Shown here one piece after another: positions 44,501 through 55,408 of a stretch of DNA of 64,000 nucleotides. A model generated the notes under the pieces. That model saw only the letters and a program-made list of their open reading frames with translations. It did not search any database and had not been told where the DNA came from. Each line of letters opens with the position of its first letter. Positions within the stretch are counted from its first letter, which is position 1. This stretch comes from Thermoanaerobaculia bacterium (lineage in GTDB: Bacteria; Acidobacteriota; Thermoanaerobaculia; UBA5066): positions 7,876 through 71,875 of the forward strand of contig JBBRRY010000013.1 in NCBI GenBank assembly GCA_038245905.1, in the 5' to 3' direction. The position numbers and the translations under genes are program-made.

Positions 44501-45787
44501 TTATCCGTCGATCCGCTCGACCGAGGCGCCGAGAGACCTGAGGCGCTCGTCCATGGCCGCATAGCCGCGGTCGAGATGATAGATCCGCCGGACGCGGGTC
44601 TCGCCCCTGGCGACGAGGCCCGCGAGCACGAGCGCCGCCGACGCCCGGAGGTCCGACGCGGTGACGGGCGCGCCCTCGAGAGACGAAGGCCCGCGCACGA
44701 TCGCCGCGCGCCCCTCGACGCGCACGTCGGCGCCGAGGCGCGCGAGCTCGACGGCGTGGAGGAAGCGGTTCTCGAAGATCGTCTCGACGAGGTGCGACGT
44801 CCCCTCGGCCTGCGTCATGAGAGCGAGGAACTGGGCCTGCAGGTCCGTCGGGAAGCCCGGGTGCGGCGCCGTCTCGATGTCGACGGCCGCGAGGGGACGC
44901 CCGCCGAAGACGCGCACGGCATCGGCCGTGACCTCGACGCCGGCTCCCGCCCGGCGGAGCGCGTCGAGGAACGCGCCCAGATCGCGCGCGCGTGCACGTG
45001 TCACGGTCACATCTCCGCCCGTGATCGCGCCGGCGGCAAGGTAGGTTCCCGCCTCGATCCGGTCGGGCACGATCGCGTGGGGCGACGGACCCGTCCCGGA
45101 GAGGCGATCGACGCCTTCGACCGTGATCGTCGCCGTGCCCGCGCCTGCGACGCGTGCGCCCATCGTCGTCAGGAGGCGCGCCGCGTCTTCCACCTCGGGC
45201 TCCGTCGCCGCGTTCTCGATGACCGTCGTGCCCTTGGCGAGGGCCGCCGCGAAGAGGACGTTCTCGGTGCCCGTCACCGTGGGCGTGGGAAAACGGATCG
45301 TCGTTCCCGTGAGCCGGCCGGTCCCGCGCCCGACGCGCGACACGTGCGCATGAATGTAGCCCTTCTCGACGGCGATCCGCGCGCCCATCGCCTCGAGTGC
45401 CATGACGTGGAGGTCCACGGGCCTCACGCCGATCGCGCATCCGCCGGGCAGCGAGACGCGCGCCTCGCCGAAGCGCGCCAGGAGCGGCCCGAGAACGAGG
45501 ATCGACGCGCGCATCGTGCGTACGAGGTCGTAAGGCGCCTCGGTCGAGGTGACGCGCGACGCGTCGAGGATCACCCGACCCGGCGCCGGCCGCTCGATTG
45601 AGACGCCCATGCCGGCGAGGAGACGGTTCATGGTGTTGACGTCCGCGAGGTCCGGCACCTCCTCGAGCGTCACGGGGTCCTCCGTGAGGAGCGCGGCGGC
45701 GAGCGCCGGCAGGGCGGCGTTCTTCGCGCCGCTGGCCCGGATGGCGCCATGGAGCCGCACGGGGCCCTTGAGAAGAAAGGCGTCCAT
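44501..45787 (-). CDS. murA: UDP-N-acetylglucosamine 1-carboxyvinyltransferase
   Basis: [27 protein letters not shown]… aligns with E. coli MurA residue by residue, 428 aa. Confidence 0.95.
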
Positions 45788-45827
45788 CAGGGGCGGGAGT
45801 GTAGCGGCACCGGCGTCCCGGCTCGTC

Positions 45828-46688
45828 TCAGAGACGAACCGCCGTGGCCGTGCGCGGGATTCCGGCGGCGTCGAGGCGCATGGCGGTGAGACGGAAGCCC
45901 GAGGTCTCGACGAGCGCGGAGACGTCGCGCGCCTGCCCGTATCCGAACTCGAATACGAACGGGGCGCCCTCCTGGAGGAATGCGGGAAGCGACGCGAGCA
46001 GGACGCGCAGGGGGTCGAGGCCGTCGCCCCCGCCGTAGAGCGCGAGCGGGGGCTCGAACTCCGAGACCGTCTTCGAGAGGTGGGGCGCGTCGGTCACGGG
46101 AACGTAGGGTGGGTTCGCGACCACGAGATCGAAGAGGGGCCGGCGTTGGAATGCCGAGAGCCAGTCGGACGCGATGGGGGTTACGCGCGCGCCGACGCCG
46201 TGGCGGCGCGCGTTGGCGGCGGTGAGAGCGAGAGCCGCGAGAGAGCGATCGGCCGCGACGACGTGTGCGCCGGGGCGGTCGAGCGCGAGCGACACGGCGA
46301 GGATGCCGCTTCCCGTCCCCAAGTCGACGATCCGGCGGGCACCGGCGGCGGCCGCGCGCGCCGCTTCCACGATGCCTTCCGTCTCGCCGCGCGGGATCAG
46401 CGCGCGCGGGTCGACGAAAAAAGTCCGGCCCAGAAATTCCCACTCGCCGAGGAGGTATTGCAGCGGCTCGCCCGCGGCGCGGCGGAGGACGAGCTCCCTG
46501 AAGGCCGCCCGAGCCGCCGGCTCCGCCGGTTCGCTCCGGCGGCCATGGAACCAGGCCCGGGGTCGTGCCGCGGCCCTCGCGAGCAGCTCTTCCGCCTCGT
46601 ACGGAGCGTGACCCGGGCCCGTGAGGCGGCGCCGCCCCTCTGCGAGGAGCGCGCCCCAGGTCGTGTCCGGGCTTTTGGAGGACGTCAT
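45828..46688 (-). CDS. prmC: release-factor glutamine N5-methyltransferase PrmC/HemK
   Basis: …VDLGTGSGILAVSLA… SAM motif and catalytic NPPY (…VVANPPYV…). ATG at 46688; the 263-codon upstream extension is junk. Confidence 0.85.
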   Translation of the reverse strand: MTSSKSPDTTWGALLAEGRRRLTGPGHAPYEAEELLARAAARPRAWFHGRRSEPAEPAARAAFRELVLRRAAGEPLQYLLGEWEFLGRTFFVDPRALIPRGETEGIVEAARAAAAGARRIVDLGTGSGILAVSLALDRPGAHVVAADRSLAALALTAANARRHGVGARVTPIASDWLSAFQRRPLFDLVVANPPYVPVTDAPHLSKTVSEFEPPLALYGGGDGLDPLRVLLASLPAFLQEGAPFVFEFGYGQARDVSALVETSGFRLTAMRLDAAGIPRTATAVRL

Positions 46689-46706
46689 GGGGGCCTCTTG
46701 TTTAAG

Positions 46707-48269
46707 ATGGAGCGTATGTCCGGCCCCCGGATTCTCGTCTTTTTCGGCCTTCTGCTTCTCGCGGCGGGCGTCGTCATCGGCATGCCGTCGTCGCTCGCGC
46801 CCGCGGCCGTCGTGATCGCGGCGGCCGCCGTGCTCGTCCTCATCGGCGCGGACCGGGCCTCGTACAACCCGGGTTTGCGCCCCGACCAGGTGACGTCCAG
46901 CCGCGCGGCGTTCGGCCCGGCCGTCGACGCGCTGGAATCGGTCGCCGTCTACACGCTGGAGCGTTCGGGCCGGATCGGCTACGCGAACCTGGGAGCGCGG
47001 CGAGTACTGGACGCGGCCGGGCGCGGCGTGGAGGGGAAATTGGCGTCGGAGTTCCCCGCCGCCGGTTCCGAGACTCCCGAGATGGTCGAGGGCCTGAACG
47101 AGGTCTTCGAAACCGGCAGGCCCCGGGTGGCGCGGCGGATCATGCTGCTCGCGGACGGCACGACGCGCGTCGAGTCCATCGTCTCGATGACGCCGGTCGT
47201 AAGGTACGGCAAGGTCGTCGAAGCGGCCGTCTGGCGAGTCGATACGCGCGGTCCCGTCGGCGGCGACGAGCACCGCGCGCGCCTCCTCGACTCCTCGCCA
47301 GCGGGGCTCCTCGGCGTGGACGCGTCGGGCCGGATCGAGGCCGTGAGCCGCCGGCTCGCGGAATGGGTCGGGCGCCGTGCGGACGCTCTCGAGGGGCTCG
47401 ACGTCGAGCGTACCGAGGTGCTGCCCCAGGCTCTTCGCGGGCACATACGGGCGCACGCCGTGAATCGCGCCGCCCAAGGCACGCCGACCGCGGTCGTCGA
47501 GGACGACGTCGTCCTCGTCACGCCGGACGGGGTCTCACGGGTGTTCCACATCCTGGTCGCCCCGCGCCCGGGCGGAGGCGCCGATGTCGTATTTCTCGAC
47601 GGCGTCTCGCGGAGGCGCCTCCTCGCCGAGCTGGACGCAGCACGTCGGGCGCTCGCCGATGCGCGCGAGACCGCCGTGGATGTTCTCCATTCCACGACGA
47701 AAGACCTCCGTGCGCGTGCCCGCGAGATCGTGGCCGCGGCACGGCGCGCGGCGGACGAGTCTTCCGGTCCGATCCAGCGCGCCAAGGCCGAAGCCGAGCT
47801 CCTCGTGACGAGCGACGCGTTCCTTGCGCGGGTGAGCGAGACCGTGCCGGAAGAGGACGGGTCCAGCCGCCGTTCGCTCGGCGGCACGGATGGCCGTCCG
47901 CGAGTGTTGCTCGTGGAAGACAACGAGGAAAATCGCGAGCTCCTTGCCCACATGCTGAGATCCCGAGGCGCCGAAGTCCTCACGGCGGCGAACGGTCGCG
48001 AGGCCGTGGACGCGGCGGCGGGCTTCCGCTTCGACTTCGTCCTCCTGGATCTTCAGATGCCCACGATGGACGGCTTTCAGGTCCTGAGGCGGCTGCGTTC
48101 CCTGCCCGGTGGCGGCCGCCTGCCGGTCGTCGCCCTCACCGCGCTCACGTCCGACCTCGTCAAGGAGCGCTGCGAGGCCGAGGGCATGAACGACTTCGTG
48201 AGCAAGCCCGTGACGCTCGCGCGCATCGGTGAGCTCGTTGCGAAATGGGGCCGGGCGGGAAGAGCCTGA
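46707..48269 (+). CDS. membrane-anchored PAS-domain protein with a C-terminal response-regulator receiver domain (no kinase or output domain)
   Basis: Two N-terminal TM helices, two PAS-like cores (…LERSGRIGYANLGARRVL…, …LLGVDASGRIEAV…) and a REC domain (RVLLVEDNEENRELL…FDFVLLDLQMPTMDG…KP). The ORF's long N-terminal extension from 45549 is murA-antisense junk. Confidence 0.7.
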   Translation: MERMSGPRILVFFGLLLLAAGVVIGMPSSLAPAAVVIAAAAVLVLIGADRASYNPGLRPDQVTSSRAAFGPAVDALESVAVYTLERSGRIGYANLGARRVLDAAGRGVEGKLASEFPAAGSETPEMVEGLNEVFETGRPRVARRIMLLADGTTRVESIVSMTPVVRYGKVVEAAVWRVDTRGPVGGDEHRARLLDSSPAGLLGVDASGRIEAVSRRLAEWVGRRADALEGLDVERTEVLPQALRGHIRAHAVNRAAQGTPTAVVEDDVVLVTPDGVSRVFHILVAPRPGGGADVVFLDGVSRRRLLAELDAARRALADARETAVDVLHSTTKDLRARAREIVAAARRAADESSGPIQRAKAEAELLVTSDAFLARVSETVPEEDGSSRRSLGGTDGRPRVLLVEDNEENRELLAHMLRSRGAEVLTAANGREAVDAAAGFRFDFVLLDLQMPTMDGFQVLRRLRSLPGGGRLPVVALTALTSDLVKERCEAEGMNDFVSKPVTLARIGELVAKWGRAGRA

Positions 48270-48272
48270 GGA

Positions 48273-49802
48273 CTACTTCGCCGGCTGCATGAGCTGCCAG
48301 TTGCCGGTACCGCCTACATTCGGATTGAAGCCCGCGTCGTTGGAGTGCTGGTACCCGCCCTGACCGTCCGTCCAGTGGTACTTCTCGGTGTAGGCGTGCT
48401 CGGAGGTTCCGTAGTAGGGGTCCTGCATGCGCTCGGTGCCGCGGATGTACTGCGAGAAGGAGTCGCTCGTGTGCTGAGCGCTCCGGTTCGCCGCCTGCCG
48501 CTGCGCGTCCATCGAGGCGATCATGGAGTCGTTGTTCGCGCTGATCTGCCGGCTGAGGGCGCCCGCCGCGGCGATCCGCGAGTAGCCCGCGGCCAGGTTG
48601 CGCTCGAATTGCGCCGTCAGCTGGTTCTGCACCTGCTGTCGCCTTTGGTCCCACACGGGGTCGTGCTGGATCGAGGACATCATGTAGCCGAGGAGAGGAT
48701 GCAGGCTGTCTAGCTGCCCGTCCCGCGCGCCCATGCTGTGCACGTAACCGAGGACGCGGTGGTTTTCATACGAGGTGCCCTGCGGGCCGTGGTAGGGGAT
48801 GCGGTTCGGGTGCGAGAGCAGCAGGAAGAAATCCTCGTCGATCGGGTGCCCGTTCAGCGTGTAGCGCACGCGCGCCGCGAGCGACTCGCCCGCGAAGGGA
48901 GGCTTGTGGAGGGCCGCAGCGAGGTTGCCGATCGGCCTCATCCCGACGATCCTGAGGTTCTGCGCTCTCCCGCGGTAGCGGCCGATCACGAACGATCGCA
49001 TCGCCTCGGTGGCCGTGATGCCGGGCCGGTGGATCATCCCGAGCGTCTTGCCGCCGACGCTTACCGAACGGTCCGCGGGCTCGGTCCAGTAGAAACATTC
49101 GGCGGGAAACGTCTCGAGCCACGCCGAGCCGTCGGCGGCGGCGAATCGCGAGCCCACCTGCACGGGCCAGCTCGTGGCCGAATAGTTCCAGACGACGTTG
49201 CTCGTCGCGGTCCACCCATCCGGCACGGCGACCGTGCTCACGCGGAGCCCGCCCTGAGTCTTGTCCACGATCGCGTAAGGATGAAAGGTCGTGCGGGAAA
49301 AGCGCTGCGCGATCTGGCTGAAGAGACCCGCGGGGGCGGAGCGAGGCGCCGGCTGCGCCTTGCCCGCCTGGGCGCCGGGCGCGTTCCACCTCATCTGGTA
49401 CAGCATCACGTAGACGACGACTCCCGTCACGGAGACGTAGAGCCAGATCGGGAGCGTCCAACGCGCGAGGCGCCGGTGCTTCTCGAACCGGCCGCGCCAC
49501 GCGAGCGAGAACGTCACGACGGCCATCGGGGCGACGGCGGCGGCGAGGACCGTGTGCGTGAGGAGGATGCCGAGGTAAAGCGTGCGCGCGCCGCCCGTCC
49601 CGGGAAACCGGACGCTTCCCACCCGCGCGTGGTACGTGAGATAGCTCGCGAGGAAGAGCGTCGAACAGGTGAATGCGGCAATCATGACGCGGCGGTGGGC
49701 GTCTCTCCGGCCCGAGCGGATGAGGACCCAGCCGACGGCGAGGAGAACGGCGCTCGTCGCGTTCAGGCAGGCGTTCAGCGTAGGCAGGTCGCGGACGGTC
49801 AC
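48273..49802 (-). CDS. CtaM/DUF420 four-helix membrane domain fused to a ~370-aa C-terminal domain of unknown function with a Gln/Asn/Tyr/His/Ser-rich tail
   Basis: GTG at 49802 (GTGA overlap with the permease stop). The N-terminal 140 aa have four TM helices matching DUF420 (…LNACLNATSAVLLAVGWVLIRS…HRRVMIAAFTCSTLFLASYLTYH…). The same frame then continues without a stop through an Ala/Pro/Gln linker into a soluble domain ending …YYGTSEHAYTEKYHWTDGQGGYQHSNDAGFNPNVGGTGNWQLMQPAK. Confidence 0.6.
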   Translation of the reverse strand: MTVRDLPTLNACLNATSAVLLAVGWVLIRSGRRDAHRRVMIAAFTCSTLFLASYLTYHARVGSVRFPGTGGARTLYLGILLTHTVLAAAVAPMAVVTFSLAWRGRFEKHRRLARWTLPIWLYVSVTGVVVYVMLYQMRWNAPGAQAGKAQPAPRSAPAGLFSQIAQRFSRTTFHPYAIVDKTQGGLRVSTVAVPDGWTATSNVVWNYSATSWPVQVGSRFAAADGSAWLETFPAECFYWTEPADRSVSVGGKTLGMIHRPGITATEAMRSFVIGRYRGRAQNLRIVGMRPIGNLAAALHKPPFAGESLAARVRYTLNGHPIDEDFFLLLSHPNRIPYHGPQGTSYENHRVLGYVHSMGARDGQLDSLHPLLGYMMSSIQHDPVWDQRRQQVQNQLTAQFERNLAAGYSRIAAAGALSRQISANNDSMIASMDAQRQAANRSAQHTSDSFSQYIRGTERMQDPYYGTSEHAYTEKYHWTDGQGGYQHSNDAGFNPNVGGTGNWQLMQPAK

Positions 49803-50581
49803 GTGTCCTCCGGGGAGCGCGGCAGTTCCGGCCGGCCGGCGGGTCCCGCGGGAAAGCGCGCGACGGCGGCGACGGCGGCCCCGAACGTCACGACGGCGAA
49901 AGCGATCGTCACGGCGAAGGAAAGCGCGGGGGACGTCCACGAGGGCACGGCGCCGCCGAGCGCGCGGCGGAGCGCCGCGACCCCGTACGTGAGCGGGTTC
50001 ACGGCCATCGCCGCGCGGAGCCATGCGGGAGCGCCGTCGACGGGAAAGAAGGCGCCCGAGAGCAGCCACATCGGGATCAGGAAAAGATTCATGATCGCGT
50101 GGAATCCCTGGGTCGACTCGAGGCACCATGCGATCGCGAACCCGAGCGCCGTGAGCGCGAAGGCGAGCACGACGAGAAGCGCGGCGGCGGTGAGGAGTCC
50201 CGCCGCGTCGGCCTTCAGGCCGGCCACGGGCACGAGGACGAGGAGCGGAAGCCCCTGGATCAGGCCGAGCACCGCGCCGCCGAGGACCTTTCCGAGCGCG
50301 ATCGAGGACGGAGCGACGGGAGACACGAGGACGCCCTGGAGGAAGCCTTCGCGCCGGTCCTCGATGACGGAGATCGTGGCGAAGATCGCCGCGAAGAGGA
50401 CGACGAGGACGACTGTCCCCGGAAAGAAGTAGCCGAACGAGTCCTCGCGGAGGGACCCCTTGAAGCCGGCCCCCACGAGAACCCACATGACGAGCGGCGG
50501 GGCGACCGCGCCGACGACGCGGCTCTTCTGCCTCAGGAAGCGGACGATCTCGCGGCGCGCGAGGGCGAGAGAAGCGCTCAT
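49799..50581 (-). CDS. ABC-2 type transporter permease
   Basis: Six TM helices and an ABC-2 signature region (…LIPMWLLSGAFFP…NPLTY…). It overlaps the ATPase gene by 4 nt. Confidence 0.8.
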   Translation of the reverse strand: MSASLALARREIVRFLRQKSRVVGAVAPPLVMWVLVGAGFKGSLREDSFGYFFPGTVVLVVLFAAIFATISVIEDRREGFLQGVLVSPVAPSSIALGKVLGGAVLGLIQGLPLLVLVPVAGLKADAAGLLTAAALLVVLAFALTALGFAIAWCLESTQGFHAIMNLFLIPMWLLSGAFFPVDGAPAWLRAAMAVNPLTYGVAALRRALGGAVPSWTSPALSFAVTIAFAVVTFGAAVAAVARFPAGPAGRPELPRSPEDT

Positions 50582-51528
50582 GCCGCGTCCTCTTCGCGGA
50601 AGCGGCGCCCGGTCTTCGCGATGAAGACGTCCTCGAGCGAGGGCGCGCCGAGCGTCACGGACTTGAACGCGCCCGGGAACGCTTCGACGAGGCGCGGGAC
50701 GAACGTGTGCGCGGCCGGCCGCTCGACTCTCACAGTGGGCCCGACCACCGTGATCCGCCCTGCCTCGGCGCCGAAACGGCTTCCGATCGCGACCGCGAGG
50801 GCGGGCGCGCCGGTCTCGTCCTTCGCCTCCACCGTCACGACGTCGCCGCCCACGGTCGCCTTCAGCGCGGCGGGCGTGTCGAGCGCGAGGAGCCGCCCGC
50901 GGTCGAGGATTCCGATGCGGTGCGCGGCCTCGGCCTCCTCGAAGAGGTGGGTCGTCAGGAGCACCGCCGTGCCCCCGCGGGCCAGAGAGCCGAGCAGCCC
51001 GACGAGATCGCGCCGCGCGCCCGGGTCGAGGCCCGTCGACGGCTCGTCGAGGAGGAGCACGGGCGGAGCGTGGAGGAGCGCCTTGGCGATCTCGACGCGG
51101 CGCGCGAGGCCGCCTGAGAGAGTCTCGACGAGATCGCCGGCGCGATCCTCGAGGCCGAAGGTCGCGAGAAGCTCGCCGATCTTCGTCCGAAGGGGCGGGC
51201 CCGAAAGAGAGTAGAGCGCTGCCTGCAAGGTGAGGTTCTCCTCGACGGTCAGCTTCTTGTCGAGGCTGGGCGCCTGAAAGACGACGCCGAGGTGCCGGCG
51301 CACGTCGCGGCCGGCCGACGCGGGATCGAGCCCGTCGATCGAAAAGCTCCCGGCGCCGGGCGGCAGCAGCGTCGCGAGGATCCGGAACAGCGTGGTCTTG
51401 CCGCCGCCGTTCGGGCCGAGGAGCGCGAAGATTTCGCCGCGCGCGACGGAGAACGTGACGTCGGCGAGCGCGGCGCGCGCCCCGAAAGAGCGGGAGAGGG
51501 AGCGGGCTTCGACGGCGGGAGGCGTCAC
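50578..51528 (-). CDS. ABC transporter ATP-binding protein
   Basis: Walker A GPNGGGKTT, signature LSGGLARRVEIAKAL, Walker B LLLDEPSTGLD. Confidence 0.9.
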   Translation of the reverse strand: MTPPAVEARSLSRSFGARAALADVTFSVARGEIFALLGPNGGGKTTLFRILATLLPPGAGSFSIDGLDPASAGRDVRRHLGVVFQAPSLDKKLTVEENLTLQAALYSLSGPPLRTKIGELLATFGLEDRAGDLVETLSGGLARRVEIAKALLHAPPVLLLDEPSTGLDPGARRDLVGLLGSLARGGTAVLLTTHLFEEAEAAHRIGILDRGRLLALDTPAALKATVGGDVVTVEAKDETGAPALAVAIGSRFGAEAGRITVVGPTVRVERPAAHTFVPRLVEAFPGAFKSVTLGAPSLEDVFIAKTGRRFREEDAA

Positions 51529-51553: not shown

Positions 51554-52435
51554 TCAGACGCGGTCGAGGACGAGGAGGACGAGGATCGCCGGCAGCCATC
51601 CGATCGACGCCAGGAAGAGCGAGCGCGCGTGGCCGTCCGAGATGTCCCTTGCGAACCTCAGCGAGGACGCCAGGAACAGGAGGGTCATCACGAACGCCCC
51701 AAAGGCGTACGCGAACCCCGCCGTGCCGACGAGAGACGGCAGGAGGCTGACGGGCAGGAGGATGGCCGTCCAGAGGAGGGTCTGGCGGGCGGTGCTGCGC
51801 CCGGTCGGGTCGACGACGGGCAGGATGACGACGCCCGCCTTCGCGTAGTCGACACGGTGGCGCCACCCGATCGCGAAGAAGTGCGGCAGCTGCCAGACGA
51901 ACAGGATCGCGAAGAGCGCGAGCCCGGGCAGGCCGAGTGCGCCCGCCGCGGCCGTGTACCCGCCGAGCGGCGGCAGCGCGCCGGGGATCGCGCCGACGAT
52001 GGTCGAGGCCGGCGAGCGCGTCTTCATCGGGGTGTACATGCAGACGTACGAGACGAGCGTGAACGCGGCGAGCGCGGTCGTGATCCCGTTCGTGAAAAGG
52101 AGGAGCTCGACGAGGCCGACGACTGAGAGCGCGCCGGCGAAGAGCGCCGCGCCCGCCATCGGGAGGCGACCCGACGGGAGCGGACGGGCGGCGGTCCGCT
52201 CCATCCGGCCGTCGAGATCCTTCTCCCAGACCTGGTTGAAGGCGCTCGTCCCGGATGCGACGAACGCCGTCCCGGCGAGGGTGTGGAGGAGCAGCGCGGC
52301 GTCCATGCCCGAGAGCGGCCCCTTCGTGCCCGCCACGAAGCCCACGAAGGCCGTCATGACGACGAACAGCGTGATGCGCGGCTTCGTGAGCGCGACATAC
52401 GACGACAGGGCGGACGGGTTGCGACGGAGGCTCAT
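51554..52435 (-). CDS. ctaB: protoheme IX farnesyltransferase (heme O synthase)
   Basis: UbiA-family motifs (…YVALTKPRI…, …NQVWEKDLDGRMERT…RPLPSGRL…) across 8-9 TM helices. ATG at 52435; the upstream extension is junk. Confidence 0.85.
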   Translation of the reverse strand: MSLRRNPSALSSYVALTKPRITLFVVMTAFVGFVAGTKGPLSGMDAALLLHTLAGTAFVASGTSAFNQVWEKDLDGRMERTAARPLPSGRLPMAGAALFAGALSVVGLVELLLFTNGITTALAAFTLVSYVCMYTPMKTRSPASTIVGAIPGALPPLGGYTAAAGALGLPGLALFAILFVWQLPHFFAIGWRHRVDYAKAGVVILPVVDPTGRSTARQTLLWTAILLPVSLLPSLVGTAGFAYAFGAFVMTLLFLASSLRFARDISDGHARSLFLASIGWLPAILVLLVLDRV

Positions 52436-53388
52436 GCGCGACGGGCGGAGCTTAGCGCGTTCCCGGGGTTCCGGCAGGCACCGAGGCAGACGAGCGCGAG
52501 GACCCCCGTCACCCAGCACAGGGCTCCGGTGGCGAGGTGGGCGGTCGTGAGGGACGGGGCCTTCCGCGACCAGACGGAGAGCGCGCCCAGGAGCACTTGA
52601 ATCGTGACGAGGCCGGCCCAAAAGGAAGCGGCGATCCCGAAGAGGGGCCGCGAAGGGGAGATCTTTGAAAGGGCGCCTGCGGCGCGAAAGACGAGCAGGA
52701 CGACGACGACGGCTCCGAGCCGGTGGGCGATGTGAATCGGCACGCCGGAAAGAGCCAGATCGGCGGCGGAGGGAAAGAACCCTCCAAAGGAAGTCGGGAA
52801 ATCCGGGATCGCGAGGCCCGCGCCCGTGTGCCGCATGACAGCACCGAGAACGATCTGGATGTAGATCGCGGCGGTGGCGGCGAGCGTCCACCGGAACGCG
52901 CGCATCGCCTCTTCACCCTTCAAAGAAATCCGAAGATTTTCTTCGACCAACTCCCTCCATGTCTTCGAGCACATGAGTGCGACGGCCGCGGTGAGGGCGA
53001 AGACGATCTCGGCGAGGGCGGCGTGCGCGGAGGAGATGGCTGGCGGAAGGAGAAGCAGCACGGTCAGCCCGCCCAGAACCGCCTGAAGCAGGATCGCCAC
53101 GAAGGCGGCCGCAGCGAGCCGCTTGACCGTCTTTCTTCCTTCTAAGAAAAAAAGAATTGCGCCCAGCTCCAGGCCCACCAATGTGGAAACGCCGGCGGCG
53201 ATGAGGCGGTGCCCGTGCTCATACAGGATGCCCCCCACCATGGGAGGCATGACCTTCCCGTAGGAGAGAGGCCAGTCCGGAACGGCGAGGCCCGACTCCG
53301 TGGACGTGACGAGTGCGCCCGCGACGAGAAGCAGGAAGACGCAGACGGCGACCGTCCGCGTTCCGACCCTCAGGAAGGCTTCACGCAC
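52432..53388 (-). CDS. ctaA: heme A synthase (COX15/CtaA)
   Basis: 8 TM helices with conserved His pairs (…YEHGHRLIAAG…, …AVMRHTGAGLA…HIAHRLGA…). ATGA overlap with ctaB. Confidence 0.8.
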   Translation of the reverse strand: MREAFLRVGTRTVAVCVFLLLVAGALVTSTESGLAVPDWPLSYGKVMPPMVGGILYEHGHRLIAAGVSTLVGLELGAILFFLEGRKTVKRLAAAAFVAILLQAVLGGLTVLLLLPPAISSAHAALAEIVFALTAAVALMCSKTWRELVEENLRISLKGEEAMRAFRWTLAATAAIYIQIVLGAVMRHTGAGLAIPDFPTSFGGFFPSAADLALSGVPIHIAHRLGAVVVVLLVFRAAGALSKISPSRPLFGIAASFWAGLVTIQVLLGALSVWSRKAPSLTTAHLATGALCWVTGVLALVCLGACRNPGNALSSARRA

Positions 53389-54226
53389 CGGCCTTGAACG
53401 TGAACGCGGCCGGCTTCGATTCCTGCGCGCCCACCGTGACCTGCTGGGTCTGCGTGCCGAACTTCTCGTGCCACGCCTCGATCGTATAGGTGCCGGCGGG
53501 GAGGTCCTTGATCGTGTACGTGCCGTCCGCCGCCGTGACGGCGAAGAAGGGATGAGAGAGGACGCCGCAGTACGCCGACATCCATCCGTGCACGTCGCAC
53601 TTGATCCGGATCATGACCTCGGGCTTGTCGAACTTCTTCGTGTACTTCATGCCCTTGACCGGCATTCCGAGGTTGAAGGCCTCGTTCTTCTCGGGGAGCG
53701 AGTGAATGTTGTGGAGCGTGTCGTCGCTGTTCAGGATCTCGAGGTTCTGTCCCGCAACCATGCCGAAGACGTGAGGGTGGTATGTGCAGCCCCTCTGGTC
53801 GATCGTGGCAGGTGCGGCGGGAGCGGGATAGGTCCCGTTGATTCCGGATTTCACGTAGACGAAGACATTCGCGAGGCCCTTGTCATTCCCGATGATGATG
53901 TCCTCACGGCTCACGTCTCCCGGATGCAATTTGGCGCAGAAGGCGTCGGCCGACATCTTGAACTTGTCGGCGGCCGGCACGGCCCCCTCGAACACGATCT
54001 TGCCGGTGATGGAAGCCGCGCCCGTCGCCCCGGCGGCGGGACTGGCGACGGAGGAGGCCGCGGGAGCGGACGTCGCGCCGTCGTCTTTCGCCGCGCCCGC
54101 GGCACGGGACGACTTGGGCCGGTCCTCGTCGTCGTCCTTGCCTCCGCAGCCGGTCAGGAGTGCGGTGCCCAGGAGAACAGCGGCCGAGAGGGCGGCAAAA
54201 CGAATTCGAATGGCGGGACCGGTCAT
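53381..54226 (-). CDS. cupredoxin-like lipoprotein with a C-terminal carboxypeptidase-regulatory-like domain (paralogue of 154..918)
   Basis: ATG at 54226 with a GAGGAGG SD, and a lipobox LLTGC. Motifs HNIH…KCDVHGWM (Cys-x2-His-x2-Met) and …DGTYTIKDLPAGTYTIEA…. It is the first gene of the ctaA-ctaB operon and overlaps the ctaA start. Confidence 0.6.
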   Translation of the reverse strand: MTGPAIRIRFAALSAAVLLGTALLTGCGGKDDDEDRPKSSRAAGAAKDDGATSAPAASSVASPAAGATGAASITGKIVFEGAVPAADKFKMSADAFCAKLHPGDVSREDIIIGNDKGLANVFVYVKSGINGTYPAPAAPATIDQRGCTYHPHVFGMVAGQNLEILNSDDTLHNIHSLPEKNEAFNLGMPVKGMKYTKKFDKPEVMIRIKCDVHGWMSAYCGVLSHPFFAVTAADGTYTIKDLPAGTYTIEAWHEKFGTQTQQVTVGAQESKPAAFTFKAGA

Positions 54227-54283
54227 GCGAGCCTCCTCGGCGGCGTTTTCCTTATCATGTCCCCCCGGAACGAGGGGAGCGTG

Positions 54284-55408
54284 ATGATAGACAAACGTCC
54301 CATGCGCGTCGAATCCGCGGTGCTCCGCCACGTGGAGATGCCGCTCAAGTTCCGCTTCCGCACGTCGTTCGGCGAGACGGGCGTCAAGAAGTTCCTCCTC
54401 CTCGAACTCCGCGGCGAGGGCCTTTCCGGATGGGGCGAGTGCGTGGCCGAGGAAGGGCCGTTCTATTCGCCCGAGACGACCTCCACGGCGTCTTCCATCC
54501 TCACGGCGTACCTCTTGCCTCTCGTCCTCGGCAAGGTCGTCGCGTCTCCGGCCGCGTTCGACGAGGCCGCGAGGCGTGTGCGCGGAAACAGGATGGCGAA
54601 GGCCGCCGTGGAATGTGCGCTCCAGGACATGTTCGCGCGCGCCGCGAGCGTTCCGCTCGGGCGTTCTCTCGGGGGAACGCGCGACGCCATCGAGGTCGGC
54701 GTCTCGCTCGGAATCTCCCCGACGCCCGCCGAGACCGTCGAGAACGTGCGGAAACACGTGGCCGAGGGCTACAAGCGGATCAAGCTCAAGATCGAGCCGG
54801 GCAAGGACGCCGACCGCCTCGCGGCCGTCCGCGAGGCCTTTCCGGACATCACGCTCACGGTGGACGCGAATGCGGCCTACACGCTGGCCGACGCGGACCT
54901 ACTGCGCTCTCTCGACGCGTTCCGGCTCGACTACATGGAGCAGCCGCTGCATCACGAGGACGTCGTCGCCCATGCCGAGCTCGCGAAGACGCTCCAGACG
55001 CCGATCTGCCTCGACGAGTCGATCCGCTCGGCGGCGGACGCGGAGGCCGCGATCCATCTTGGCGCCTGCAGGGTCATCAACATCAAGATCGGCCGCGTCG
55101 GCGGCCACGCGGAGGCTGTGCGCATTCACGACGTCGCGCGCGCCGCGGGCGTCCCCGTGTGGTGCGGCGGCATGCTGGAGGCGGGCATCGGGCGCGCGCA
55201 CAACGTCGCGATCGCGAGCCTGCCGGGCTTCTCGAAGCCGGGGGACACGTCCTCTTCGTCGCGTTACTTCGAGGAGGACATCGTCGAGCCCGCGCTCGAG
55301 GCGAAGGAAGGGCTCATGCCCGTGCCGGCGGGTCCTGGTACCGGGGTCACGATCCGCCCTGACGTCCTCGGACGCGTTACGACTTCCATCCAGGAGCTTC
55401 GCGCGTGA
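54284..55408 (+). CDS. enolase-superfamily o-succinylbenzoate synthase / N-succinylamino-acid racemase (OSBS/NSAR subgroup)
   Basis: Catalytic KxK (RIKLKIEP), metal ligands in …TLTVDANAAY…, …DYMEQPL… and …ICLDESI…, and a second Lys in …NIKIGRVGG…. Confidence 0.75.
   Translation: MIDKRPMRVESAVLRHVEMPLKFRFRTSFGETGVKKFLLLELRGEGLSGWGECVAEEGPFYSPETTSTASSILTAYLLPLVLGKVVASPAAFDEAARRVRGNRMAKAAVECALQDMFARAASVPLGRSLGGTRDAIEVGVSLGISPTPAETVENVRKHVAEGYKRIKLKIEPGKDADRLAAVREAFPDITLTVDANAAYTLADADLLRSLDAFRLDYMEQPLHHEDVVAHAELAKTLQTPICLDESIRSAADAEAAIHLGACRVINIKIGRVGGHAEAVRIHDVARAAGVPVWCGGMLEAGIGRAHNVAIASLPGFSKPGDTSSSSRYFEEDIVEPALEAKEGLMPVPAGPGTGVTIRPDVLGRVTTSIQELRA

Follow-up and report, generated by a model that had tools for sequence, protein, structure and literature searches.

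A stretch of 64,000 nucleotides from a Thermoanaerobaculia genome (contig JBBRRY010000013.1; this whole stretch is referred to below as the window) carries an open reading frame (ORF) that raises the question of whether one gene, two genes or a faulty assembly is being read. The ORF spans 509 codons at positions 48273-49802 of the minus strand, from a GTG start (49802-49800), which shares a GTGA overlap with the TGA of the upstream ABC-2 (ATP-binding cassette type 2) permease gene, to a TAG stop (48275-48273). It encodes a full DUF420/CtaM domain (residues 1-139) and then a further 370 residues with an end rich in Q, N, Y, H, S and W. An initial sequence-only reading had recorded this architecture and offered two explanations, namely a novel domain recruited, possibly by horizontal acquisition, or an unrecognised gene boundary. 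We instead conclude, with a probability of roughly 90%, that the ORF arose recently in evolution through a genuine fusion of two genes that lie side by side in the same orientation in a heme-A/oxidase-biogenesis operon (ctaA-ctaB-ABC-ABC2-ctaM-X), where X denotes the gene found directly downstream of ctaM in close relatives.

The comparison of fused with split orthologues, which the sequence-only reading had itself proposed as a check, decided the matter. ctaM and X are separate genes in locus L013 (X 91% identical), in L002, L003 and L083 (87-90%) and in L004 and L084 (69-70%). The split ctaM encodes 139 residues that end in …LYQMRW, MKW, MSW or MTW immediately before the stop codon, and is followed by a homologous spacer of 28-29 nt (TCCCGCGTTTCAG..AGGGGG) with a Shine-Dalgarno motif. 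The split X of the close relatives (87-91%) is a gene of 390-403 codons with an ATG, a signal peptide and a lipobox cysteine. In the window, by contrast, the TGG codon of W139 (49388-49386) runs directly into a Pro/Ala-rich mature-lipoprotein linker, which puts the junction at 49386/49385; here GAQAGKAQPAPRSAPAGLFSQ aligns with GAQAGQAQPASRSATPGLFSQ in L002. The tether so formed (NAPGAQAGKAQPAPRSAPAGLFSQ, residues 140-163, 49314..49385 on the minus strand) is homologous to the mature-lipoprotein linker of the split relatives. DNA alignment against L002, L003 and L013 demonstrated that the ctaM stop, the 28-29 nt spacer, the ATG of X, its signal peptide and its lipobox are missing from the window, a net loss of ∼125 nt; the signal peptide and lipobox cysteine are absent from the window protein because they have been deleted. 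Loss of the stop codon through a single 1-nt deletion was also considered as the origin of the junction and rejected by reasoning, as reading on through the spacer in that frame would not lead into the frame of X.

The fusion is not confined to the window. It is demonstrably present in four further loci from independent assemblies: L001 (Logan run SRR26386622, 502 residues, junction W/GKPPSSPPP…, the slash following the tryptophan), L096 (also P0004; JGI 3300045993, with an N-terminally truncated gene call, junction W/NAPSGPARAGITQPG…), L008 (an NCBI metagenome-assembled genome (MAG), 501 residues, W/PPATAVTSR…) and L009 (an NCBI MAG, 504 residues, W/DGALRPVAASS…). Together with the window (509 residues, W/NAPGAQAGK…) these make five fused loci; in every one the join follows the TGG codon immediately and restores a single frame, and the five linkers all differ. 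The linker of L096 also carries a tandem ITQPG/IAQPG duplication. One additional locus, L091, was excluded from the analysis as a probable assembly chimera; its contig (1211-1650) encodes ctaM residues 1-114 and then an inverted copy of its own 3′ end.

A codon-based neighbour-joining tree of the X part intersperses fused loci with split ones. The window groups with the split L013 at 99% bootstrap and L008 with the split L004 at 100%, within a clade of L004, L008 and L009 that also has 100%, while the tested groupings of fused loci received 0-1%. Mutation could hardly give a fused gene back a homologous spacer and signal peptide, and the interleaving therefore points to several independent fusions, probably three as a minimum and five at most. 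N-A-P, the opening three residues of the linker, is common to the window and L096, whose fusions may stem from one event. The X part of P0004/L096 is a mosaic, with ends resembling the window clade (88-97%) and a middle (columns ∼120-240) resembling the clade of L004 and P0008 (85-95% identity in most windows, compared with 54-82% to the window). This mosaicism indicates either recombination between the clades or a chimeric assembly; if it is the former, recombination could also convert alleles between the fused and split states. The X part was compared pairwise, fused-fused and fused-split pairs included, and its ratio of nonsynonymous to synonymous substitution rates (dN/dS) always fell within 0.08-0.22. 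X is thus under purifying selection, and the fused genes show no decay.

The ORF is a real coding sequence and not a chance frame of a high-GC (guanine plus cytosine) genome, given its GC at third codon positions (GC3) of 0.91, 311 homologues and a dN/dS of ∼0.1. The sequence-only reading was right that Q, N, Y, H, S and W are over-represented in the last ∼150 codons; these residues make up 39% of the last 150 positions, against 24% in mid-protein and 11% in six neighbouring proteins. Its observation of lower GC in the tail also stands in part, in that GC in 150-nt windows dips to 0.62-0.65 in places against 0.69 over the whole window. However, the dip is modest and confined to codon position 2, where GC is 0.36-0.50 in the tail. 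The sliding-window GC3 that had been suggested as a check remains at 0.84-0.98 along the entire gene, including the tail, and gives no foreign-DNA signal. With third positions unchanged, the dip reflects amino acid content.

Sequence, helix count and gene context all mark the N-terminal part as a bona fide DUF420/CtaM. It occupies 49386..49802 on the minus strand (residues 1-139) and matches PF04238 at 152.9 bits (gathering cut-off 30.5) over residues 6-134, covering profile positions 1-130 of 130. AlphaFold2 (AF2) models its four transmembrane (TM) helices at residues 3-29, 33-61, 71-102 and 106-140, with a predicted local distance difference test score (pLDDT) of 83-95. That DUF420 proteins normally stand alone was borne out by a length survey of the 120 clusters closest to the window protein (73-94% identity) in a collection of 5.8 billion proteins: all have 131-141 residues, nearly all of them 139-141, and no fused form was found among the 120 closest clusters listed. 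An extension of 370 residues is therefore unusual.

Neither Pfam nor NCBIfam gave a match for the C-terminal ∼370 residues. The last 365 residues, used as a query, nevertheless retrieved 311 homologues with E-values down to 1e-88 and beyond, nearly all of them stand-alone "hypothetical" proteins of 370-410 residues that lack a Pfam domain. Their signal peptides often end in a lipobox cysteine (…AAAAC/RG, …LLSGC/SR, …VAAC/SG, the slash following the cysteine). Among 78 complete N-termini classified with a simple heuristic, 45 were lipoprotein-like and 30 carried another hydrophobic export or anchor signal, so that an export signal was present in 75 of 78. A profile search of 1.84 billion representatives at 50% identity placed 1,738 clusters in this family at E ≤ 1e-3 and 904 at E ≤ 1e-10. 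Species-representative genomes with the family belong to the Acidobacteriota, Binatia, Myxococcota, Burkholderiales, Verrucomicrobiota, Planctomycetota and others, and nearly all are MAGs. In longer members the X match finishes at or near the C-terminus of the protein, and the N-terminal additions that were scanned contained PDZ, Sel1 or Cys-rich modules or had no Pfam match; none was DUF420. PDZ, Sel1-repeat or Cys-rich modules precede the X domain in P0319, P0337, P0373 and P0291, and N-terminal extensions of 120-430 residues with no Pfam match occur in P0243, P0255, P0300, P0326 and P0359.

An AF2 model of X built from 80 sequences has a mean pLDDT of 90 and consists of an α/β domain, a helix of ∼65 residues and, in the place of the tail, a small β module. 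All three elements lie on the minus strand of the window. The PsbP/Mog1-like α/β domain covers 48675..49286 (residues 173-376); the long helix, with the motif GYxxIAAAGxLSRxISANND and the invariant residues I410, A412, A413 and S417, covers 48441..48659 (residue 382 to ∼454); and the β module covers 48276..48437 (residues 456-509), with a pLDDT of 88-93. The helix and the β module together are modelled at 81-93. The predicted α/β fold is shared with solved members of the PsbP/Mog1-like superfamily at 7-15% identity, and 80 family members gave no meaningful Pfam match at E ≤ 1, PsbP-, DUF1795- and LpqN-type families included; a family profile also found no match among sequences of the Protein Data Bank (PDB). 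Pex19 matches on the long helix were weak (E ≥ 0.005) and were disregarded. By its model, X is therefore PsbP/Mog1-like in fold only, and forms a large family that has no curated model.

The tail had been called compositionally aberrant, a description that does not survive comparison with the family. It is the most conserved region of X, with a mean column entropy of 1.13 bits against 1.59 in the main domain, and contains the motif YIRGT…DPYWGTSE…YHWTDGxGNYxHSNDxxFNPN…WQxMxP, including YIRGTERMxDPYWGTSE. Y452, R454, G455, S467, W477, G482, P494 and N495 are invariant in this region, among 18 invariant columns over 80 aligned sequences that include the window protein. His348, His476 and Met505 are near-invariant, and X has no conserved cysteine. 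The window protein carries a full-length X match at its C-terminus, together with all family-invariant residues. The Q/N/Y/H-rich tail is thus the conserved C-terminus of family X and not foreign DNA.

These results bear directly on the other ways in which the ORF might be explained. A horizontally acquired foreign domain would fit the GC of 0.62-0.65 in parts of the tail and the patchy distribution of family X over many phyla. Yet GC3 of 0.84-0.98 is the same as that of the host gene, the dip is accounted for by second codon positions and amino acid content, and X belongs to the resident genes of this neighbourhood across the clade, has conserved flanks and lies directly downstream of ctaM in the closest relatives; we therefore consider foreign origin barely credible. 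Errors of assembly or sequencing in a MAG (a collapsed deletion, say, or a frameshift) are only slightly easier to entertain. The related sequences are all metagenomic, L091 is clearly chimeric and P0004/L096 is mosaic between two clades, which lends the idea some weight. On the other hand, five independent assemblies show the fusion, all in one frame, each with its own junction (a chance of ∼(1/3)^5), and the ∼365 downstream codons keep a GC3 of ∼0.9 and a dN/dS of ∼0.1, all of which makes a sequencing frameshift very unlikely.

The sequence-only reading had also pointed to a possible internal start at MRW, and two separate products could in principle arise by re-initiation near M133/M137 (…VMLYQMRW…), where there are in-frame ATGs at 49406-49404 and 49394-49392 and a GGGAG ∼11 nt upstream of a GTG-ATG. 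The first product would, however, have no stop codon, and the same codons and GGGAG occur as coding sequence in stand-alone ctaM, of which MRW is the native C-terminus. The true Shine-Dalgarno motif, start and signal peptide of X have been deleted along with the former gene boundary, and an X protein begun at M137 would lack an export signal, unlike 75 of 78 homologues. We regard re-initiation as highly improbable. A fusion of neighbouring genes remains the reading that we prefer; taken as a description of the sequence, a plain and structurally coherent fusion, which may be neutral, merits about the same high confidence as was given at the outset.

On this reading the fusion came about through a net deletion of ∼125 nt that removed the ctaM stop, the spacer bearing the Shine-Dalgarno motif, and the start, signal peptide and lipobox cysteine of X. 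Mature X, with its own Pro/Ala-rich tether, was thereby joined directly to Trp139 at the end of the fourth TM helix, exchanging a lipidated cysteine for the CtaM four-helix bundle as its anchor. The counts of lysine plus arginine in CtaM (five in loop 1 and six in loop 3, compared with one at the N-terminus and three in loop 2) predict an N-out/C-out orientation by the positive-inside rule. Previous descriptions give DUF420/CtaM four or five TM segments (PMC9145763). In published Sco-DUF420 fusions the periplasmic Sco domain precedes DUF420 (PMC13344008), so that an N-out DUF420 is independently required. Since the C-terminus of CtaM is predicted to be outside, fused X should still reach the periplasm, where its homologues evidently work, and with neither signal peptide nor lipobox it should not depend on lipoprotein processing or sorting. 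X would then stay next to CtaM at the inner membrane, with a 1:1 stoichiometry, and we infer that it acts at the periplasmic face of this membrane. An AF2 model of the full-length protein contains the four helices, a disordered tether (residues 139-159, pLDDT <50) and the X fold, but has a predicted template modelling (pTM) score of 0.56 and no defined CtaM-X interface; it neither supports nor excludes docking of the two parts.

Whether X works together with CtaM is a further question. The fusion may be selectively meaningful: X would then serve CtaM as a dedicated partner in the periplasm, helping to assemble heme-copper oxidases as a PsbP-like extrinsic accessory or metallation factor, and by Rosetta-stone logic the repeated fusions would reflect selection for co-localisation and 1:1 stoichiometry. 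We consider this possible but doubtful. Within this clade X lies in the same operon as ctaM, and the fusion is recurrent with X under purifying selection. Proteins of the PsbP type attach to membrane energy complexes as extrinsic accessory subunits, and serve photosystem II (PSII) and the NADH dehydrogenase-like (NDH) complex. The literature places CtaM late in oxidase assembly, with copper delivery as a possible role (PMC9145763, PMC13344008); the protein is required for the activity of aa3/caa3 oxidases, acts after heme a insertion, and has a proposed role in CuB assembly or copper export (PMC4958251, PMC9145763, PMC13344008).

Several observations weigh against this reading. X is missing altogether from L086-L088, which carry the closest ctaM relatives (94-95% identity). 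In each of these loci (∼2915-2960) the ctaM stop directly adjoins the 3′ end of the convergent PAS/response-regulator gene. Outside the Thermoanaerobaculia clade X is not adjacent to ctaM or other cta genes and no neighbour is conserved across phyla; DUF420 is a neighbour of X in just 7 of 82 loci examined. Fused forms are rare and sit at the tips of the tree, a pattern to be expected equally of an advantage and of short-lived accidents that are tolerated. X has no conserved cysteine. Moreover, the single 509-residue product is deduced from the sequence, and the topology of CtaM from the positive-inside rule and the logic of the fusion rather than from experiment. Both termini of CtaA are cytoplasmic. 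DUF420 has been hypothesised to resemble half of CtaA (PMC8239418), and a topology common to the two, if there is one, would point to the reverse orientation. On this evidence there is weak support for a functional coupling of X to CtaM, and we think it unlikely that the two are partners.

That X is a CtaM-associated accessory factor in oxidase maturation is nevertheless a possibility. More speculatively, X could represent a widespread and hitherto unrecognised class of periplasmic PsbP-like accessory proteins that in Thermoanaerobaculia partners CtaM to complete heme-copper oxidase maturation, for example by receiving or presenting copper exported by CtaM. We would not expect this to prove correct; if it did, the repeated CtaM::X fusions would amount to a natural experiment that reveals the partnership and fixes the C-terminus of CtaM on the outside.

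The loci that lack X carry a trace of how it may have been lost. Their junction reads TCCCGC/CCCGG, with the slash at the point of joining, and two copies of the TCCCGC repeat flank X in the window and in the split loci; the junction lies between these two copies, and the stretch of the window to compare with it is 48230-48275. The loss of X in L086-L088 thus looks like a precise repeat-mediated deletion. In these loci the response-regulator ORF runs on and overlaps, from the other strand, the 3′ end of ctaM.

The gene order CarboxypepD_reg-like, ctaA, ctaB, ABC ATPase, ABC-2 permease, ctaM, X is common to the window and Thermoanaerobaculia MAGs. On the minus strand of the window, upstream of the fused gene, lie the DrrAB-like ABC-2 permease (49799-50581) and the DrrAB-like ABC ATPase (50578-51528), both assigned through Pfam with NCBIfam scores below curated cut-offs; the heme O synthase gene ctaB (∼51554-52432; TIGR01473 at 257.9 bits with a cut-off of 210.3, and PF01040); and ctaA, a COX15-type heme A synthase gene (52432-53388; PF02628 and synteny with L004). 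ctaA and ctaB share the operon of ctaM, and their order is kept in L001 and L004. The DrrAB-like ATPase/permease pair is conserved between ctaB and ctaM in the clade, L001 and L004 included, and its position makes a heme- or copper-related exporter conceivable. A CarboxypepD_reg-like β-sandwich protein is encoded directly upstream of ctaA (53384-54757, minus strand), a position that is kept in L004. No oxidase structural genes were found in the flanks examined.

Beyond X lie a convergent PAS/response-regulator gene, then prmC and the gene for 5-enolpyruvylshikimate-3-phosphate (EPSP) synthase. The TAG of the fusion gene (48273..48275, minus strand) and the stop of the PAS/response-regulator gene (48269, plus strand) are 3 nt apart (window 48267-48275), so that no terminator fits between the two convergent genes. 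The mechanically called ORFs at 45549-48269 (plus strand, 906 residues) and 45828-47477 (minus strand, 549 residues) are over-extended, as is typical of DNA with 69% GC; comparison with L004 indicates that the real genes encode a PAS/response-regulator of ∼511 residues, starting at ∼46.7 kb, and a PrmC methyltransferase of ∼287 residues. In a wider survey, ORFs of at least 90 codons from 79 loci were clustered by all-against-all BLASTP, and the only recurrent clusters were X itself, its overlapping frames and generic ABC ATPases. For loci outside the Thermoanaerobaculia clade, genomic context therefore offers no clue to function.

Few factors of oxidase biogenesis still lack an assigned molecular role; CtaM is among them, and domain fusions have already served as clues. 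A C-terminal fusion to an exported domain provides an independent constraint, namely that the C-terminus of CtaM faces the periplasm. Family X, with ∼1,700 clusters at 50% identity in many phyla and no Pfam model, is a candidate CtaM partner and would be worth curating. It also appears that a lipoprotein can trade its lipid anchor for the TM bundle of a neighbour via a single deletion of ∼120 nt, and that this has happened repeatedly. These points leave current understanding intact, and the fusion may be no more than an accident that is tolerated.

It is common for neighbouring genes of an operon to fuse. As in other Rosetta-stone fusions, a stop, spacer and start between co-transcribed neighbours have been deleted here; unlike in those, the signal peptide has been lost as well, a lipid anchor has given way to a polytopic one, and five junctions fall within one narrow clade. 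We know of no earlier description of the CtaM-X architecture, of a lipobox giving way to a polytopic anchor, or of the apparent recurrence of the event. The window protein resembles CtaM/YozB of B. subtilis and S. aureus in its full-length PF04238 match, its four TM helices and its place in a heme-A operon with ctaA and ctaB, whereas the known proteins stand alone at ∼140-190 residues and lack the 370-residue extension, which is predicted to be periplasmic. From the PsbP/CyanoP/PnsL/Mog1 superfamily (DcrB, LpqN and the Eag chaperones SciW, EagT6 and PA0094), X differs in having no sequence-level membership (7-15% identity) and in adding a helix of ∼65 residues and a conserved C-terminal β module that those proteins lack. 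Planctomycetes Sco-DUF420 fusions, which a 2026 study of B. subtilis cites and which we compare here by description (PMC13344008), likewise join a DUF420 bundle covalently to an extracytoplasmic domain, and both architectures are consistent with an N-out/C-out orientation. Sco, however, is an N-terminal copper chaperone of thioredoxin fold with a known role in CuA assembly, while X is C-terminal, PsbP/Mog1-like in its predicted fold and without a conserved cysteine.

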